From the NCBI GenBank assembly GCA_000146465.1, contig CP001952.1: 64,000 nucleotides of DNA. One strand, written 5' to 3'. The notes beneath the pieces are model-generated. The model was not told the DNA's origin and made no database searches. It worked only from the letters and a program-made list of their open reading frames with translations. Positions 12,559-54,582 of the stretch are shown here, piece by piece (position 1 is the first letter of the stretch; each line of letters begins with the position of its first letter). Position numbers and translations under genes: made by a program.

Positions 12559-12852
12559 AATTAAATCTTCAAATAATCTTCCACTAGATAGACTGTTTTT
12601 TCTAGAAAGATCAGACATATTAAACCTTTCATAGTTTCCAAAATCCATATCGCATGTATGTCCATCGTCAAGTACATAGACCTCACCATGTTCCCGTGGA
12701 TGGATCTCCCCAGCATTGTAGTTCAAATAAGGATCTATCTTAAAATGAGTAGTGTTGTGCCCTCTTGACTTTAGTAAAACGCCAATGCTACTACTTACTA
12801 TACCTTTTCCAATACCAGAGATAACACTTCCACAAACCATAATATATTTCAT
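11245..12852 (-). CDS. URA7: CTP synthase, paralog A (535 aa)
   Basis: N-terminal synthetase P-loop GSVISGIGKG, C-terminal class-I glutamine amidotransferase (GICLGYQL, HPEF). Residues ~98-535 are identical to paralog B at 58113..59720. Confidence 0.9.
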   Translation of the reverse strand: MKYIMVCGSVISGIGKGIVSSSIGVLLKSRGHNTTHFKIDPYLNYNAGEIHPREHGEVYVLDDGHTCDMDFGNYERFNMSDLSRKNSLSSGRLFEDLIKREKEGHFLGKTLQINPHAIDDVIRRIKMVAETPVEDFKSGRRVIPDVVIIELGGTVGESESSIYTDAFAKFQRIVGRSNCAFVSVDHLVELESGEQKTKSIQMGCRNFRRFGLSYDIIVCRGVRDPSKETREKISKNCWVEPGNVFGLPNLESVYLVPKFLEEHGMVESLNKVLGISSKEGDREILETFERLVQKHEDTVRIGIVGKYSPEFDSYTSLVHALRFSGASVGVNVEIEWINADSYTTEDLEKCNGIIIPGGFGARGIEGKISAIRYARENRIPLLGICLGYQLSIIEMCRNVLGMKDASSEEFNPSGKNLVVRFISDKNGVVDKKLRVGGYEVELEDGLVKRLYSGAEKIRERHRHRFEVVRSEVSSLCSYGLRFVGFSDERRAAKIFELTSHPFFVGVQFHPEFTARPNQPHPLITGLISASCRKLN

Positions 12853-12926
12853 TTTTAGGGATGCCTGAGAATTAACTTCTTTGAAGGAATCTAGATATTC
12901 GGATAATTTAATTTTAATTACAAACT

Positions 12927-14546
12927 TTACTTATTTTCAATTTCACTCAATAAAAGTTTTTTGTCTTCAGATTCTTGAAAAACCAACGAGCAGAGAGAAA
13001 TAAACTCTTCTGAGGAGATAAAAAGCTTACCATTTCTATATCCTTCAATCACTTCCGCCCTATTTGAAGATAGCACTTGTTTGTAAGATTTCAACTTCCC
13101 TTGGCTTCCTATAGCTCCTGCAGGAAGGTGGAAGGAGAGATCAAGGATGTAATCAATCAATATTGGAAGGTTTTCAATAGTACTTCTCTTTGCCATTTTC
13201 AATTCCTGGATTTTCTTCATCAAGTTTTCACCAAGCATCTCAAAAAATTGGATTTCAAACAGACTCATATTAATTTCAGGTACAAACAACTCCATGTTTT
13301 CAACAAACTCCACATGCTTTTCTTTAAAATAGAGTTTGAGAGTTACTAAGGGCTCGTCAAGGGCTACATTGATCCTTGATGATTCCTTGATGACGTCAAA
13401 GAATAGTTCCTCTTTTCTTTTGGACAACTCGTCGGCAAGGCAATGCCCAGGATAAACCCTCAAGAAATGCGTTATGTCAGCAAACTCAATAAAATAGCTG
13501 TAAATGGAGGGCTCATATCTCTTCGGATCAAATAGCTTCTTTATCGCTCTATTAATAACTCTTACTCCCTTCTCATGTCTCTTTGACTTCAACTTTCTGA
13601 ATACTTCAAAGCATTTTTGAAATCTTTTATAGCTTGCAGAGATGGATTTTGGCATTCGATTGGAAAGTTCAAAGGTTTTGACGGCCTCCATGTCCCTTGG
13701 TCCCTTTGTCATCTCGATAATTTCCTTCATGACAACATCAAGCTTCCACTCGACAACATTGTGAATGTAAAATTCTGTATCTCGGAAGAAGGCATTGCTT
13801 GCTTCTATCGATTCGTCGGAGAGGTCTTCTTCCACAACTGCATTCTTCATATTGTCCCTTAAAACCCCAAATATCACGTGAGACATCATTTCATACTTCG
13901 AAATCTCCTCTAAACCCATTATAGCTTTTCCTACCAACTCACAGTGGGAAAGATCTCCGGATTGGCCTTTAAATACAAAAAACAGCGACAAGTCATCTTG
14001 AAAGACCTTTATGCCAATAGGCACAATGTTTAGCATATTCTTGTGTACTATTGACCTTAATGAAAAGTAGCATTTTTCTTGTATTTCCATGTATCTGGCT
14101 GAAAGCTGGAAAAGGGTTTCCACATCCTTTCCTATCTTGAAAACCATCGGCCCGTCGCCATGCCCGCTCTCTAGGTCCTCCACCTCCCCGGAGCCACAAG
14201 AGTTAATATATTTGAGAGCAATCGAGTGATTAAGAAATTCCAGCGATTTCTTTAGTACCACATCTCCATCAGCAATCTTAGAAAAAATTGCCTCTAGATC
14301 GCTTATACTTCTGCATTCCTTAGAACCCAAGGAGAGCTTTTCTATATCTTCAAGGATGTTTTGGTATTCATCACCAATCTTCTTTATTTCCTTCTCCAGG
14401 CTTATAGAATCAGTTCTCTTGATCTCCTTCTCTATTCGATCTAATTCCTTCTCTCGCCCAACCTTCTCATCTCGGAGTGAAAGATACCTTCCATAACACT
14501 CGTCAACATCCCTGATTTTGTTGAAGAGTTTGTCTATCTTTTCCAT
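12927..14546 (-). CDS. hypothetical helical protein, 539 aa (possible vesicle-tethering-complex-like subunit; speculative)
   Basis: Long ATG-initiated ORF with coiled-coil/helical composition. No diagnostic motif recognised. Confidence 0.5.
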   Translation of the reverse strand: MEKIDKLFNKIRDVDECYGRYLSLRDEKVGREKELDRIEKEIKRTDSISLEKEIKKIGDEYQNILEDIEKLSLGSKECRSISDLEAIFSKIADGDVVLKKSLEFLNHSIALKYINSCGSGEVEDLESGHGDGPMVFKIGKDVETLFQLSARYMEIQEKCYFSLRSIVHKNMLNIVPIGIKVFQDDLSLFFVFKGQSGDLSHCELVGKAIMGLEEISKYEMMSHVIFGVLRDNMKNAVVEEDLSDESIEASNAFFRDTEFYIHNVVEWKLDVVMKEIIEMTKGPRDMEAVKTFELSNRMPKSISASYKRFQKCFEVFRKLKSKRHEKGVRVINRAIKKLFDPKRYEPSIYSYFIEFADITHFLRVYPGHCLADELSKRKEELFFDVIKESSRINVALDEPLVTLKLYFKEKHVEFVENMELFVPEINMSLFEIQFFEMLGENLMKKIQELKMAKRSTIENLPILIDYILDLSFHLPAGAIGSQGKLKSYKQVLSSNRAEVIEGYRNGKLFISSEEFISLCSLVFQESEDKKLLLSEIENK

Positions 14547-14597
14547 CGGAGGGATAAAACCACTATTGCATATTCATCAGATATCCTTGAAGAGAAA

Positions 14598-15212
14598 ATG
14601 GATTTGGATGAAGATGTTTTATTTCTTGGAAACATTCCCGAGAGCTTCAACAACGAGCTTCTAATAGAGATGCTGAGTGTTTTTGGAGAGATTAAGGAGT
14701 TCAAGCGTGGTAAGGATCTAGAAGGGACAGACTCAAAGTGGGTGATTGTAAGTTACTATGAGAAATCATCGATCAGCAATCTCTATTGCAGCCTGCTGAA
14801 CAGAGACCTGGGACAGGGAATGGTGGTTGTTTTCCCGCAAAAAAAGGAATTACAAGCTTGGGAGGTCTCGGACGAGATACTCGGAAGAGTTGACGACATT
14901 GCAAAAAGATATAAAGAGAGACTCAAGAAAGAGGATTGCTTAGAGAAGTTTGTTTCCAGCTATGATTTGTTGTATGGTAGTACAGGAGATGGGCAAGTGT
15001 TTTCTGAAGCACTGTCAAAGTGGCTGGATGAAGAATCGGAAATACGCAGAAGATGCAGAAAGGCCGAGAATGACTTTGAAAGAACTGCAGAAAGGAAACG
15101 ACAGGAAGAATATTATTATCTATCAACTTATGACGATGACAGATCTAATGATTTATTTTATACTGATAGAGTTTCTTGGGCACTTAAAAGAAATAAAGAT
15201 GATGTTAAATAA
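14598..15212 (+). CDS. RRM-like RNA-binding protein with a charged C-terminal tail, 204 aa
   Basis: N-terminal RNP2-like LFLGNIP and FGEIKEF. The ER/K-rich C-terminus is typical of splicing or RNA-processing factors. Confidence 0.5.
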   Translation: MDLDEDVLFLGNIPESFNNELLIEMLSVFGEIKEFKRGKDLEGTDSKWVIVSYYEKSSISNLYCSLLNRDLGQGMVVVFPQKKELQAWEVSDEILGRVDDIAKRYKERLKKEDCLEKFVSSYDLLYGSTGDGQVFSEALSKWLDEESEIRRRCRKAENDFERTAERKRQEEYYYLSTYDDDRSNDLFYTDRVSWALKRNKDDVK

Positions 15213-15263
15213 ATTCGGAAGAGTCTGTTGGTAAGGAATTTATTTGTCTCCAAAATTTTGTGA

Positions 15264-15574
15264 ATGGAGGGTAATCTTGAGACAAGGATATCTAGGGCCT
15301 TGGAGAATGAGTTCAAACCTGCAGCCTTAGAGGTTAGGAACACTACTGCCAATCATGTGGCCCATAGGAAGCCCGAAGATGGAAAAGTTCTTGAAACACA
15401 TTTTTACGTCAGGGTGAAGTCTTCGGCATTCAACGGAATGGTAAGTTAATGATCGCCGTATAATTTAAGAGATTTGCAGACAGGCATAGGCTTGTATATA
15501 AGGCACTTGAATTTGCTTTTGAAAAAGGCCTTCATGCAATTGAGATGGATTGCGATTCTGACGTCCAAGAGTGA
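15264..15574 (+). CDS. BOLA: BolA-like protein. Spliced as join(15264..15440,15470..15574), 93 aa.
   Basis: Exon 1 ends ...HFYVRVKSSAFNGM (BolA core). The track ORF stops 2 codons into GTAAGT. Removing a 29-nt GTAAGT...TAATTTAAG intron continues in frame with RFADRHRLVYKALEFAFEKGLHAIEM..., the conserved BolA C-terminal RHRLVY/HAL motif. Confidence 0.7.
15441..15469 (+). other. spliceosomal intron (29 nt) in the BolA-like gene
   Basis: 5' GTAAGT. 3' TAATTT-A-AG. Splicing restores the conserved BolA C-terminus in frame. Confidence 0.65.
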
Positions 15575-15719
15575 CTAGGATTATCTTTCTTTAATTTAAA
15601 TTTAATTTGATTTGATTTAATGGTGCCTTTGTCTTAGAAACTTCAATTTATACCTTTTTGGTAAAAAGAATTTATTCTTTTTTTTGTTTTACTTTAAATA
15701 ATGAACAAGGTTTTTGGCC

Positions 15720-16469
15720 ATGCTTCACCTATTATATCTTGCATTTGCCTTGTGCCATGAAGTTCCTGATGTATGCACTAGTTCTGGGATGATAGCAATC
15801 AACTTTGTAGATGGACCAGTCAGGGGAGTGACCGATAAGGTTCTAAACACTCTGGAAGAGCTTGGCGTGAAAGCTACTTTTTCGTTTACGGTGAACCAGA
15901 AAGCCGTCGGAAATGTAGGGCAGTTGTATAGGAGAGCAGTCAACGAAGGACATACTGTAGGATTGAGAGTCGATCCAAGGATGGATGAGGGATACCAAGA
16001 TATGTCTCAAGAGGCCTTGGAAGATAATATTGACCGGGAGATAGATACAATCGACGGACTCAGTGGAACTGAGGTGAGATATGCGTCTGTGCCCATATCC
16101 AATGGAGAGGTTAGCTCTGAGCTATATACCATCCTTACCCAGAGAGGTGTTCTTCCCCTAGGATATACCTTCTGCCCATATGACTACGACGACCCTATAG
16201 CCGAATTCGAAGCCATGATAGAAGGATCAGATCCCAAACACCATTCCTTCATCATCTTAATGCATGACGGACAGGAGGGAGATACTTCACGCTTGGAGAA
16301 GATGGTGGAGATAGGAGAGAAAAAGGGATATACTTTTACTAACATGGATGAATGTCTTCGAGGCTATAAAGGCTCTCCTGGAGATCCGGAGCTCAATCTC
16401 AGAGGAAAGGGTGCTGCAAGCCTCGCTACGTTCCTCCCTTTCTTCATGCTATTGGGGCGACTTCTCTAA
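15720..16469 (+). CDS. CDA: polysaccharide/chitin deacetylase (NodB domain), secreted with a hydrophobic C-terminus
   Basis: Signal peptide [15 protein letters not shown]. NodB-type fold (FVDGP..., [15 protein letters not shown]). C-terminal hydrophobic tail [18 protein letters not shown] suggests a GPI or TM anchor. The track start at 15714 is TTG. First ATG is at 15720. Confidence 0.85.
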
Positions 16470-16657
16470 AGTATAAATAAATATACAAATCTTATGATCA
16501 TGTAATTATTTAATGGGCTCATGAATGCCTTCGGCATAGAAATCCATGTACTGTGTGATCTCTCTATCGTTAGTCCCATATTTCTCGATATGGGAATGTG
16601 TTTATAGAGACAGGACTTAAGCGTTAAGCACGACAATAGGCTTTATATTCTATATTT

Positions 16658-17659
16658 TTAGGATATTTCTTCCTCCTTTTCATCAGAGGTCTCCTGACAG
16701 CGGGAATCAAGCAAACACAGGCTGGGAGGAAGCAGAAGGTTACATTCGGAGCAGAACCGGATGGTGTCTTTGCTTACGTCGTAGTACCCGGGATATGGCT
16801 GGTAAGAAAGATGAAATTTACCATATCGGTTCTCCACAAACCCATATCCCTCGTGTACAGACTGCTTAATGTCAAACCCGTTCACGTGGTTGAAGTCTGG
16901 ACTAAAGAAATATCTATTCATCAAAAACTCCACATCAGAGACCCACCCGCTGTATGGGCCAGGCGACTTCCGGGCGTAGTACTTTGCTCCTTCAATTCCT
17001 AACCAATGAAATGCATCTCTTATCCATTCCAAAGCAAAATTGAAATCTTCGTCTCCATCGGAGATCTCAGTACTCTTGAGACAGTAGTTTGCAATAAGGA
17101 CAAATTTGTCTAGTTCACTAAAAAACTCCTCAAGAAGATGCTTTAACTTGATTTCCTTCTTCAAGCTCTTGGTCTTTTGCTTGAAGTAAAGGTCTTCAAG
17201 AACCACAGTATAGTTATTTCTTCCTTCTGCATTGCATAGGAACTTCGGATTTGGATGGTTCCTTCTATTTTTCTCGATAGCCATATCAGAGATACTTGGA
17301 GTCTTGATATTTTTATATAGATTCTCTGCCTCCTTGAGAGAATATATACTCAAAAGCCCCTCACATTCGTCTGAATCTTTGCAATCAGAACTGCTACTGC
17401 CATCATTGCTTGATAAATCTTCTTTATTTTCCTCATGGAGATCTTTAGAGGTAATAAATGGCCCTACTTTGGAATCCGAGTATCCAAGATTAAGACTTTC
17501 TTCTTCGCAATTTTCAACAGAAGTGCCGTTCTTGAACAACTGTTGTATCTTCATTTTCTCTAAAGAGGACTTTTTCAATCTTGTTGGATCATTGCTTATG
17601 TCTAACTCCACGTCATTCAAGGAGCTCTTAATTCCTTCCTTTCTTCCAGAAACTTCCAT
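16658..17659 (-). CDS. hypothetical protein, 333 aa (acidic S-rich N-terminus, Cys-rich C-terminus)
   Basis: Track start at 17662 is TTG. The ATG at 17657-17659 is followed by a GGG motif. Possible C-terminal CxxC...C...C knuckle. Family not recognised. Confidence 0.5.
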   Translation of the reverse strand: MEVSGRKEGIKSSLNDVELDISNDPTRLKKSSLEKMKIQQLFKNGTSVENCEEESLNLGYSDSKVGPFITSKDLHEENKEDLSSNDGSSSSDCKDSDECEGLLSIYSLKEAENLYKNIKTPSISDMAIEKNRRNHPNPKFLCNAEGRNNYTVVLEDLYFKQKTKSLKKEIKLKHLLEEFFSELDKFVLIANYCLKSTEISDGDEDFNFALEWIRDAFHWLGIEGAKYYARKSPGPYSGWVSDVEFLMNRYFFSPDFNHVNGFDIKQSVHEGYGFVENRYGKFHLSYQPYPGYYDVSKDTIRFCSECNLLLPPSLCLLDSRCQETSDEKEEEIS

Positions 17660-17725
17660 CAAGGGTTGAGAAGGGTGGCGCCTGTAAAGACTCAGTTCAA
17701 TTTTAGCCCAAAAGAAAGAACATAC

Positions 17726-17920
17726 ATGAATGTTAGAGAGTCATTCATCAGTACAAGAAAGACAAATGTGTCTAGAGAAGATTCCGAGAAAGATTGCTAT
17801 GAGGAGGAATACTATAAATGGAGGATACGTGATTTGAAGAGAAAGATAAGAGACATTAGGAAAGAAATCATTCGGGCAAAGAACATTGGAACTTCCGGAA
17901 ATGATCCTAAAATTTATTGA
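17726..17920 (+). CDS. possible small basic coiled-coil protein (64 aa). Doubtful.
   Basis: ATG at 17726 preceded by CCC. It overlaps the 3' end of the TrpRS gene by ~14 nt on the opposite strand. K/R/E-rich (YYKWRIRDLKRKIRDIRKEIIRAK). Could be noise. Confidence 0.2.
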   Translation: MNVRESFISTRKTNVSREDSEKDCYEEEYYKWRIRDLKRKIRDIRKEIIRAKNIGTSGNDPKIY

Positions 17921-19064
17921 TGTCCATAAATACTTTCAAGTCTTCATCGGTAATCTTCTTTCGGGATTCTTGATACCTTAAAACAAATTCTTGAACAATA
18001 GAAATACATTTCTCCTTCATTTCCCTGCTGGTAATCTCTCCCTTAATGTATCCCAACCGATATCTTTCAAGCTCCTGATCATCATCCAAGAAATATCTCA
18101 GATATTCAAATGGGACATCCACATCGATATTTCCTCCCTTTTCCCGATGTTCTTCCAATGTTTCCCTACCCCCAGAATAAGCATGCACTGTAATCTTCTT
18201 TCGTATTGTTTCCGGTGTATCGTCCAAATATATGGAGCTATTTGGATCGCTAGCAGACATCTTTCTATTCACACCTTTGAGATCTGGAAGAAGGGATACG
18301 TATGCAGACGAAGGCTTTCTCTCCCCAAGCGTATTTGCTTTGTCTCTTGCCAACCTGAAGAACGGGTCCTGATCAACTGCTGCAAAAACAAGACACATTG
18401 CATCCTCTTCAATAAATTTAAAAGAGCTTGGAAAGCAGGGTGCTATTTCTTTTGATGGAAATCCCACCTGCCCTATGTTGCTGGATGTGTTGAATCCAAA
18501 GATCTTAGATACCTCATTGAAGTTGATTGTCTTCGATATCTTCAGGACATTTTTTTCGAAGTGATGAGAAGATTCAACATTAGAAAATATATACGTCAGT
18601 TTTGGATCAAAACCTAGTGCTATAATATCCTTCATGTTTTCTTTCCCATACGATATAGCATCCTCGAGTTTCATATTTTTCCACAGGAACTTCTCGTCGT
18701 CAGTTATTTGAATTACAAGATGTACTTTGAAAGTGTCCTGAATGTACTTACAAAGAAGGAAGGGGATGATGTGGCCAATATGCATTGCCTTCGAGCTGGG
18801 GCCTCTTCCTGTGTACAGATAGAATGACTTGTTCTTGGATACTTCATCAAGCAAAAGGTTAAAATCCCTGTGCCCAAAAACTATGCCTCTCCTAAAGAAG
18901 TAGTGTGCTGGCTTGTTTGTAAGTTGTTCTAAACGCTTCACTAGATCCTGATTAAAGCGCTCGCAGCCAAACTGATTAACTACCTTGTCGTAGTCGATGG
19001 CCACAGGCGTCTCGCTTGTAGATACAACTTCCACGTCCCAAGGTGTAATCTTTTGTTCTTCCAT
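17907..19064 (-). CDS. WRS1: tryptophanyl-tRNA synthetase (cytoplasmic type)
   Basis: HIGH motif (SSKAMHIGHIIPF) and KMSAS motif (RKMSASDPNSSIYL). Strong overall match to eukaryotic TrpRS (VIQITDDEKFLWK). Confidence 0.9.
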   Translation of the reverse strand: MEEQKITPWDVEVVSTSETPVAIDYDKVVNQFGCERFNQDLVKRLEQLTNKPAHYFFRRGIVFGHRDFNLLLDEVSKNKSFYLYTGRGPSSKAMHIGHIIPFLLCKYIQDTFKVHLVIQITDDEKFLWKNMKLEDAISYGKENMKDIIALGFDPKLTYIFSNVESSHHFEKNVLKISKTINFNEVSKIFGFNTSSNIGQVGFPSKEIAPCFPSSFKFIEEDAMCLVFAAVDQDPFFRLARDKANTLGERKPSSAYVSLLPDLKGVNRKMSASDPNSSIYLDDTPETIRKKITVHAYSGGRETLEEHREKGGNIDVDVPFEYLRYFLDDDQELERYRLGYIKGEITSREMKEKCISIVQEFVLRYQESRKKITDEDLKVFMDINKF

Positions 19065-19133
19065 TTAGGGGAGGCATGTTCACATTTAATATAGTTGAAA
19101 GACCAAAAATTAAAAAATTAGCTTCCTTTGGAA
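19065..19133. promoter_or_regulatory. divergent intergenic region (TrpRS <- -> mtHsp70) with a GGGG motif abutting the TrpRS start codon
   Basis: cat-ttaGGGGagg immediately 5' of the minus-strand ATG. Similar CCC (plus-strand genes) or GGG (minus-strand genes) motifs lie within ~15 nt of most start codons here. Confidence 0.4.
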
Positions 19134-20912
19134 ATGGCGGAAATGAGCTCTCTAAGCAAAAAGCTTTCTTCAAGCATAATAGGAATAGACCTGGGAACAA
19201 CCAACTCCTGTGTGTCTGTAGTTAAGAATGGGGAGCCTTTAATAATAGAAAACCAAGAGGGAGAGCGCACCACACCTTCGGTTGTGTCGATACTTGGAGA
19301 CGAAGTTATTGTAGGCAACCAAGCCAAGAGTAGGATGTTAATGAATCCCAAAAACACAGTGTTTGCATCCAAAAGACTGATAGGCCGGAAACTTGAGGAT
19401 CCAGAGGTGAAGAAGTATGTAAAGGGCCTTCCTTTCGATACAATGTCTCACTGTAACGGAGATGTTTGGATAAAGATTGATGGAAAGAAGTATTCTCCAG
19501 CACAAATAGGTGCGTTTGTACTTTCTAAGCTCAAAAAGAGTGCAGAATCATTCTTAAATCATCCGGTTGCAAAGTCGGTCATAACAGTTCCTGCATATTT
19601 TAATGATAGCCAACGTCAGGCAACAAAAGATGCAGGAAGAATAGCTGGGCTGGAAGTTGTAAGGGTGATCAATGAACCGACAGCTGCAGCACTTGCATAT
19701 GGCCTTGACAAGCTGGCAAAGGGAAATATTGCAGTCTATGATCTCGGAGGGGGAACCTTTGACATTTCTATTCTTGAGCTGAGCAATGGAGTGTTTCATG
19801 TAAAAGCTACTAACGGAGACACATTTCTTGGAGGAGAAGATCTTGACAATGAGCTTGTGAAGTTTATTATTGAAGACTTTAGGTTGAAGGAGGGAGTTAA
19901 CTTGGGTGAAGATATAAATGCACTAACGAGAATCAAGGAGTGTGCAGAAAAGATAAAGAAGGATTTATCTTCGTCTCTTTCCTCAAGAATCAACATACCA
20001 TACATATGTAGTATTGAAGGAAAGCCAAAGCATCTAACCAGAGAAATCACCCGGGACGAGTTGGAGAGAGTGGTTAAGAAGATTGTGGATCGTACTATTG
20101 AGCCATGCAAGAAAGCACTTAGGGATGCAGGGATGGAGGGTTCGGATATCAAACACGTGATACTGGTGGGGGGAATGACCCGGATGCCATATGTCCGAAG
20201 GGTAGTCAAGGAGGTGTTTGGAATTGAACCTTCTACCGGTATCAATCCCGATGAAGCCGTTGCAAAGGGAGCAGCATTGCAGGGAGGAGTTCTTACGGGA
20301 GAGGTTGATAATGTGCTTCTCCTGGATGTTGCACCTCTAAGCCTAGGAATTGAACTCCTTGGAGGAGTGTTTAACAAGATAATAAGAAGGAATACAACAA
20401 TTCCATTTAAAGAAACACAGACGTTTTCTACGTCAGAAGATAATCAAACAGAGGTGGACATCAAGGTATACCAGGGGGAGAGATCCATGGCATTGGATAA
20501 CAAGTATCTAGGACAGATCAAGCTCAAGGATATTCCTCCTCTTCCTCGAGGAGTGCCTAGGATTGAAGTGACGTTTGAGTCCGATGCTAACGGGATGTAC
20601 AAAGTAACTGCACAGGATAGTGTCACAAAGAAGCCGCAGTCTCTAGAGATAATTCCATCTAGTGGATTAACAGAGGAGGAGATAAACAAAATGGTGGAGG
20701 AAGGAGAAAAGCATAGACACTTAGATGAGATAAAAAGGAGGAAAGCTGAGCTTATTGTTTCTTCGGCCGAGTTTCTTCGAAGACCATCCTCAAGCTTGGC
20801 AAAAATCTCCAAGGACTGCTTAGACACGATTAAAAGAGCTGTGTCTGGAGAGGAGTTTGATTTGGAAGAAACAAAGCAAGCACTGGAAAATGCAAAGAAA
20901 GCCATCTCTTGA
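19134..20912 (+). CDS. SSC1: mitochondrial-type (DnaK-like) Hsp70, i.e. mitosomal Hsp70
   Basis: IGIDLGTTNSCV, VPAYFNDSQRQATKDAGRIAGL, DLGGGTFD. DnaK/mtHsp70-type rather than cytosolic. Track start at 19128 is TTG. First ATG is at 19134. Confidence 0.9.
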   Translation: MAEMSSLSKKLSSSIIGIDLGTTNSCVSVVKNGEPLIIENQEGERTTPSVVSILGDEVIVGNQAKSRMLMNPKNTVFASKRLIGRKLEDPEVKKYVKGLPFDTMSHCNGDVWIKIDGKKYSPAQIGAFVLSKLKKSAESFLNHPVAKSVITVPAYFNDSQRQATKDAGRIAGLEVVRVINEPTAAALAYGLDKLAKGNIAVYDLGGGTFDISILELSNGVFHVKATNGDTFLGGEDLDNELVKFIIEDFRLKEGVNLGEDINALTRIKECAEKIKKDLSSSLSSRINIPYICSIEGKPKHLTREITRDELERVVKKIVDRTIEPCKKALRDAGMEGSDIKHVILVGGMTRMPYVRRVVKEVFGIEPSTGINPDEAVAKGAALQGGVLTGEVDNVLLLDVAPLSLGIELLGGVFNKIIRRNTTIPFKETQTFSTSEDNQTEVDIKVYQGERSMALDNKYLGQIKLKDIPPLPRGVPRIEVTFESDANGMYKVTAQDSVTKKPQSLEIIPSSGLTEEEINKMVEEGEKHRHLDEIKRRKAELIVSSAEFLRRPSSSLAKISKDCLDTIKRAVSGEEFDLEETKQALENAKKAIS

Positions 20913-53396: not shown

Positions 53397-54561
53397 ATGG
53401 ATATCTCCGAAGAAAAGTTCGATGTACTGGATTCTGTGCATGTCTCTGGATTCCGAATATTGAAAGACAGTGGGGAGTTCTACCAAAGAATTAAGTTTCT
53501 TATGCAGAACTCGACATCAGTATGTATAGCATCCCTATTCTTTGGAAAGAACGGAGAAATGGAGGACATCATCGACATTCTCGAAGAAAGAAAGAGGAAG
53601 AATCTCATGACAATCATCTTCATCGATAAAAACAGAGGGACAGTCTTCGAAAGTCTGGAGTCTATAAAAAGAAGGGGTCTTGGCTCATTTTTTCATCTTG
53701 TAGATCTCTCTACGTCTTTCCTGCTTCCAAGGAGACTAAATGAACTTCTCAGAACCTTCCATACTAAGGCCTTGGTTTTCGATGGCCTAACCATATTATC
53801 TGGTGCAAACATGGATGCATCGTACATGACAAACAGAGTAGATAGGTAAGTGAAGCATTTTAATTTTAAGATATCTCGAGATTGACAGTAGGGAGCTGGC
53901 GGATATGATCAGATCTAGAGTCTTTGGAATAAGGCCCCCTTTGGAGGCTGGAAAAACTATATGCCAGGGCCTTCCAGTGTATGTAGGTATGTTTAAAGAG
54001 AAAGAGGAGCCTGCCATAGTCCAGTCGTTTCTGGAAGACTTCGACGAGATACACATTTCCACAGGATATCTGAACTTTCCGGCTCGCTATTTCAAAATGC
54101 TCCAAGGAAAGAAGGTGTCTCTCTATGCTTCATGCCCAGATAAGAACACCTTCGACTCGTTTGGACCCTTGGAGCGATTCATAGGCCCAGCTTATTCATA
54201 TAGCTTCTACAGAACTCTCAGATCAATTTCAAGCCTTTCCATTCACGAGCTGAAGAGGGACGGCCATTCATTCCATCTGAAAGGTAAGTGGAATTGTTAA
54301 TTTCTAGGCTTCTGGGGATTCAAGGGCAGAACAGCTGCAACCATCATAGGCTCATCAAACTTCAACAGGAGAAGCGTAGAAAGAGATGACGAAACAAATT
54401 ATCTAATAATCACATCCGACCCAGACCACGTTCAGAAGCTGAGGACTGAGGTGGAATATCTCAAGAGTAACTCAGAGGCAAGGACCTTGAAGCAGCTTAG
54501 AGGAAGGACATACCAGTTGGCCGTAATTCTATTGTTTCTGATTTTCAACAGATTCTTCTAA
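53397..54561 (+). CDS. PGS1: phosphatidylglycerophosphate synthase Pgs1 (PLD superfamily). Spliced as join(53397..53845,53871..54283,54308..54561), ~371 aa.
   Basis: Exon 1 ends HTKALVFDGLTILSGANMDASYMTNRVDR, the first HKD motif (human PGS1 HMKVYLFDNSVILSGANLSDSYFTNRQDRY). Exon 2 ends ...HSFHLKG. Exon 3 continues FWGFKGRTAATIIGSSNFNRRSVERDDETNYLII (human HAKGFW...IGSPNFGYRS). Both junctions have GTAAGT / TAATTT-N2-AG and keep the frame. The unspliced track shows three fragments. Confidence 0.75.
53846..53870 (+). other. spliceosomal intron 1 of PGS1 (25 nt)
   Basis: gtaagtgaagcattttaattttaag. 5' GTAAGT, 3' TAATTT-TA-AG. The junction sits between the conserved R and Y of NRVDR|Y. Confidence 0.7.
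54284..54307 (+). other. spliceosomal intron 2 of PGS1 (24 nt)
   Basis: gtaagtggaattgttaatttctag. 5' GTAAGT, 3' TAATTT-CT-AG. Phase-1 junction inside the second HxK(G)FW catalytic motif. Confidence 0.7.
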
Positions 54562-54582
54562 TCTAGTATGGCACCAAATAAA

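Follow-up and report, generated by a model that had tools for sequence, protein, structure and literature searches.

A conserved 29-nt spliceosomal-type intron very probably interrupts the BolA-like gene of Encephalitozoon intestinalis

The window, the whole 64-kb stretch of Encephalitozoon intestinalis DNA that was analysed, has a G+C content of 41.6%, and its positions 12720 to 19469 (6,750 nt) are 100% identical to record CM119903.1 of the E. intestinalis assembly GCA_051312815.1. The ORF list and its translation give an ATG-initiated ORF of 61 aa on the plus strand (15264..15449), which ends ...SAFNGM-V-S-stop, the last three codons being GTA AGT TAA. The ORF therefore stops two codons into a GTAAGT, as the sequence-only reading had claimed. 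This GTAAGT opens a segment of 29 nt, 15441..15469 (GTAAGTTAATGATCGCCGTATAATTTAAG), which runs from GT to AG (GTAAGT...TAATTTAAG). Its deletion joins ...SAFNGM to RFADRHRLVYKALEFAFEKGLHAIEMDCDSDVQE and a stop codon, giving a 93-aa product that terminates at TGA 15572..15574. Retention of the 29 nt leads to an in-frame TAA two codons into the segment, and its length leaves a remainder of 2 on division by three. The segment lies near the middle of the coding sequence, at codon 59 of 93. The features of the proposed gene are as follows.

15264..15440, plus strand: exon 1, 59 codons from M1 to M59; helix 1, strands 1 and 2 and the [H/C]-loop with H46; Pfam BolA positions 1-43.
15441..15469, plus strand: putative spliceosomal intron of 29 nt, phase 0, between codons 59 and 60.
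15441..15446, plus strand: predicted 5' splice site GTAAGT, invariant in 8/8 loci and identical to the E. cuniculi consensus (GT)AAGT (PMC2483917).
15461..15466, plus strand: predicted branch-point hexamer TAATTT, of the TAAYTT class; TAA(T/C)TT in 8/8 loci.
15468..15469, plus strand: predicted 3' splice site AG, the first AG past the branch hexamer with one base between them; TAAYTT-AAG is invariant in 8/8 loci.
15470..15574, plus strand: exon 2, 34 codons and the stop codon TGA, RFADRHRLVY...GLHAIE; helix 2, strand 3 and H81; Pfam BolA positions 47-72.

Two more AG dinucleotides lie just 3' of the predicted acceptor, at 15470-15471 and 15478-15479, both out of frame with the GTAAGT donor. 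Downstream acceptors are known to be used rarely in three E. cuniculi genes (PMC3629993).

The BolA-like gene is single-copy in E. intestinalis and is the ortholog of E. cuniculi ECU11_0505. Using the adjoining polysaccharide deacetylase gene, we retrieved the orthologous loci and compared eight of them: those of E. intestinalis, E. cuniculi GB-M1, E. hellem, three Encephalitozoon-like lineages taken from read-archive and metagenome assemblies, Ordospora colligata and a second Ordospora. The order CTP synthase, 538-aa protein, RRM protein, BolA, deacetylase is conserved in the orthologous loci, and the BolA ortholog occupies the following positions of three retrieved loci.

2552-2857: E. hellem.
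2551-2862: E. cuniculi.
2513-2833: second Ordospora.

Two of the Encephalitozoon-like lineages, found in Logan SRR21633403 and ENA ERZ28580411, are richer in G+C, with BolA introns of 25 and 24 nt and the same gene order. Directly upstream of the BolA ATG in the window lies a CTCC followed by the stretch AAAATTTT (15242..15263, plus strand), and a run of AATTTAAATTTAATTTGATTTGATTTAA separates the BolA stop codon from the deacetylase gene (15590..15625, plus strand). Both stretches resemble the CCC-like and AAATTT-like signals that have been described 5' of microsporidian start codons (PMC4589312).

Comparison with the Pfam BolA profile (PF01722, cut-off 25.7 bits) shows that the two exons are complementary parts of one BolA domain. 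The spliced 93-aa product reaches 72.6 bits and covers positions 1-72 of the 76 in the profile. The 61-aa ORF on the exon 1 side covers positions 1-43 with 35.9 bits, and exon 2 by itself covers positions 47-72 with 27.3 bits (E=4.4e-6). The sequence-only reading had proposed that removal of 15441-15469 would connect ...SAFNGM to a C-terminal BolA block and complete a 93-aa BolA protein, with a profile match to be compared between the spliced and the unspliced product; every detail that it gave of the sequence is correct, and its interpretation is supported by the scores obtained. A profile built from the spliced orthologs matches Arabidopsis thaliana BolA1 (4pug) with E=6e-20 and runs without a gap over the junction, FEGMNLVKRHRLVY being aligned to FNGMRFADRHRLVY.

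The AlphaFold model of the 93-aa product has a pLDDT of 81.9 and consists of helix 4-17, strands 21-26 and 45-53, helices 61-71 and 73-77, and strand 80-89. This helix-strand-strand-helix-helix-strand topology is the BolA order of elements, and a Foldseek search with the model returned BolA proteins in all of the best 12 matches, with a TM-score of 0.79 to 4pug. Two histidines are invariant in the alignments. One, H46 in the motif ETHF, belongs to the [H/C]-loop N-terminal to strand 2, where the residue is His and not Cys; the other, H81 in GLHAIE, lies at the N-terminal end of strand 3. Since H46 is encoded by exon 1 and H81 by exon 2, a complete BolA is encoded only by the spliced mRNA. The closest solved relatives are BolA1/BolA_H proteins, which together with H46 places the product in the BolA_H subgroup. 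Proteins of this subgroup have two histidines that act as metal/Fe-S ligands, one in the [H/C]-loop before strand 2 and the family-invariant one at the start of strand 3, and form a [2Fe-2S]-bridged heterodimer with a monothiol glutaredoxin (PMC7538681). On family membership alone, the E. intestinalis protein may be expected to have a comparable Fe-S function with a glutaredoxin partner.

In all eight orthologous loci the sequence reads ATG|GTAAGT ... TAA(T/C)TTAAG|A at the same codon boundary. The interrupting segments measure 29, 27, 27, 29, 25, 24, 26 and 30 nt (24-30 nt), thus covering all three length classes modulo 3, and their interior is variable and carries indels while the splice signals are invariant. 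If retained, the segment truncates the protein in 8/8 loci. Both flanks are under coding constraint, with variation mainly at third codon positions: among the eight orthologs, variable columns at first, second and third positions number 11, 7 and 26 of 29 in exon 2, and 8, 6 and 14 of 16 at the end of exon 1. With the junction shared by the eight loci, the product is 92 aa long in E. hellem; that of E. cuniculi has 94 aa and that of the second Ordospora 96 aa.

Scanning both strands of the window with the pattern GTAAGT-N(4-34)-TAAYTT-N(0-4)-AG gave three matches against 0.17 expected; none of 100 dinucleotide shuffles reached three, and with a second-order Markov simulation the mean was 0.27. 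All three matches restore long ORFs with Pfam domain matches. Besides the segment in the BolA-like gene, they are the introns at 53846..53870 (25 nt) and 54284..54307 (24 nt) on the plus strand of the window, which run GTAAGT..TAATTTTAAG and GTAAGT..TAATTTCTAG and in both of which the AG lies 2 nt past the branch hexamer. These two mini-introns divide a PLD-like gene (53397..54562, plus strand) into three ORF pieces, and the spliced 371-aa product matches Pfam PLDc_2/PLDc and has two HKD-type motifs. They serve as internal positive controls, and the gene may be the ortholog of ECU11_0850, a two-intron gene mentioned in PMC3629993. A simple motif scan is thus able to recover all three introns of the 64-kb window.

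Taken together, these observations lead us to conclude with high confidence that 15441..15469 is a canonical Encephalitozoon-type short spliceosomal intron of the BolA-like gene, the splicing itself being deduced from the DNA. U1 would pair with GUAAGU at the 5' end of the intron and U2 with the UAAUUU branch sequence, six bases from its 3' end, and the first AG downstream (15468-15469) would serve as the acceptor. By analogy with the TAAYTT consensus, the branch adenosine would be approximately A15463. Codons M59 and R60 would then become adjacent, in phase 0, in an mRNA that would encode a 93-aa protein of BolA_H type.

The public gene models of this clade conflict with each other as to the junction. 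For E. intestinalis, KAL7348454.1 (GCA_051312815.1) has the identical 93 aa, and its gene spans 311 nt, which implies this same intron of 29 nt; the public models of E. romaleae and O. colligata likewise have the same junction as the 93-aa product. The RefSeq record XP_009161910.1 and the records AHL30165.1 and UTX46389.1 (E. intestinalis ATCC 50506) give instead 91 aa, ...FNGMVNRHRLVY, implying a 35-nt intron at 15445..15479 (GTTAAT...TTGCAG), and the 93-aa public model of E. hellem implies a 24-nt GTTTAT..GCAG intron. No intron is annotated in ECU11_0505 of E. cuniculi, a model of 65 aa, or in the 67-aa protein model of O. pajunii. We listed all GT-AG pairs that restore the frame, species by species, and only the GTAAGT/TAAYTTAAG pair is present in all eight loci. 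In E. intestinalis the shared junction scores 72.6 bits against the BolA profile vs 66.5, 48.1 and 46.0 bits for the others, and in E. hellem 73.1 bits vs 69.1 bits for the public model. The other E. intestinalis GT-AG pairs, with products of 84, 85 and 91 aa, were rejected because of their BolA scores, their splice-site match and their lack of conservation. An exact look-up found no contig on record that encodes the 91-aa RefSeq product.

A real intron with the borders of the three 91-aa records is the best of the alternatives, although we consider it very unlikely. Its 35 nt also run from GT to AG and restore the frame, its product still matches Pfam BolA with 66.5 bits, and an equivalent donor/acceptor pair is present in 7/8 loci. 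In E. cuniculi, the acceptor is GG and not AG, so that the 35-nt model cannot be general. Its donor GTTAAT matches GTAAGT at only 2/4 non-GT positions while a perfect GTAAGT stands 4 nt upstream, and its acceptor lies 13 nt past the TAAYTT hexamer and skips the first AG, contrary to the spacing of 2 nt in the other introns of the window. The 10 nt that it makes intronic, which are the first of exon 2 in the 29-nt model, are free of indels and vary codon by codon, the first four codons of exon 2 encoding R/K, F/L/I, A/M/S and D in the different species. Finally, the 91-aa product scores 6 bits lower against BolA and has a two-residue deletion relative to the solved BolA1 proteins, to which the 93-aa product aligns without a gap. 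The comparative analysis settles which of the three conflicting public junctions is right, namely GTAAGT/TAAYTTAAG.

It is very unlikely that the gene is not spliced at all, encoding only the 61-aa ORF or being a decaying pseudogene with a relic of a BolA-like frame downstream. The unspliced annotations of E. cuniculi GB-M1 and O. pajunii would fit such a gene, as would the generally inefficient splicing in the genus. However, exon 2 is clearly subject to purifying selection in its own frame, as seen from the third positions varying in 26/29 cases vs 7/29 for the second positions in the eight species, and keeps the family-invariant His and the RHRLV motif; moreover, a relic would not keep invariant splice signals around a drifting interior across Encephalitozoon and Ordospora. 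The weakest alternative, an indel introduced by sequencing or assembly or else a site of programmed frameshifting or read-through, would account for the BolA halves of E. intestinalis lying in different frames, but is extremely improbable given that independent E. intestinalis assemblies have the same BolA-locus sequence with 0 mismatches to the window, that the insert is a multiple of three with an in-frame stop in E. cuniculi, E. hellem and the second Ordospora, so that no single frameshift model fits all species, and that one splicing model does.

With the 29-nt intron as the preferred reading, we turn to the transcripts. In E. cuniculi, ECU11_0505 is transcribed at 205-323 FPKM. The protein/contig collection yielded no spliced cDNA contig for the 93-aa product; its 93 aa occur there on one genomic contig only. 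The 61-aa ORF with the intron retained is found on a 3.2-kb Logan contig that has genes on both strands and for this reason looks genomic. The sequence-only reading had regarded transcripts retaining the 29 nt as a refutation of the intron, a view that is not valid in this genus: of the 37 E. cuniculi introns validated by RNA-seq, 30 (81%) are spliced in <50% of transcripts (PMC3629993), and because of this inefficiency intron-retaining transcripts are not decisive against the intron. By comparison with E. cuniculi, many BolA transcripts probably retain it. A search of the literature for BolA, Encephalitozoon and intron found nothing relevant, and no mention of ECU11_0505 was found in literature text; the 37 validated introns are listed in a figure only. 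The gene is not named in Whelan 2018, the Ordospora genome paper, the T2T paper, the small-CDS paper or MicroAnnot.

One could also imagine, with little expectation that it is so, that the intron serves as a dosage or regulatory gate, so that splicing efficiency, or use of the AG at 15470-15471 or 15478-15479, sets how much functional BolA is made. If this were true, and if splicing were as poor as that of most E. cuniculi introns, most transcripts would encode the 61-aa fragment without the invariant His at strand 3. The trace of such a role would be the retention of the intron since before the split of Encephalitozoon and Ordospora, in genomes that have lost almost all of their introns.

Irrespective of any regulatory role, the intron and the exact 93-aa gene model are already known, having been deposited in GenBank (KAL7348454.1), from which our model does not differ. 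The value added here is one of curation only, giving the whole clade a single consistent junction, and is of little importance beyond annotation quality. Four public models look wrong or truncated and probably need correction: the 91-aa RefSeq model of E. intestinalis, the 93-aa model of E. hellem, ECU11_0505 and the O. pajunii protein. The T2T paper states that the introns of these annotations were entered manually, and this may be why the public models are inconsistent.

Compared to known introns, that of the BolA-like gene resembles the short introns of E. cuniculi. Published introns of this species measure 22-76 nt, are of GT-AG type with strict 5' and branch motifs, and cause a stop or a frameshift if retained (PMC3629993, Grisdale et al. 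2013); 13/13 accepted ones contain TAAYTT, with the 5' consensus (GT)AAGT (PMC2483917, Irimia and Roy 2008). The BolA intron has the same GT-AG borders, the GTAAGT donor and a TAAYTT near the 3' AG, and its 29 nt fall within the published range. It is an ordinary representative of this well-described class and shows no structural difference from it, although the base before the hexamer is A (ATAATTT) and not the C that is commoner in E. cuniculi (CTAAYTT, 9/13), and its place is near mid-gene. Its host gene is non-ribosomal, as are those of many E. cuniculi introns added in 2010, as far as these are described in PMC3629993 (Lee et al. 2010). At the protein level, E. intestinalis BolA is similar to A. 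thaliana BolA1 (4pug) and to mouse and human BOLA1 (1v60, 5lci) in its PF01722 domain, its BolA fold and its RHRLVY helix, and shares with BolA_H proteins the His before strand 2 and the invariant His at the start of strand 3. Its identity to the solved BolA_H proteins is ~30%, and it differs from them in having neither an N-terminal extension nor a targeting peptide and in its acidic C-terminal tail, DCDSD, which is conserved in the Encephalitozoon/Ordospora clade and specific to it.
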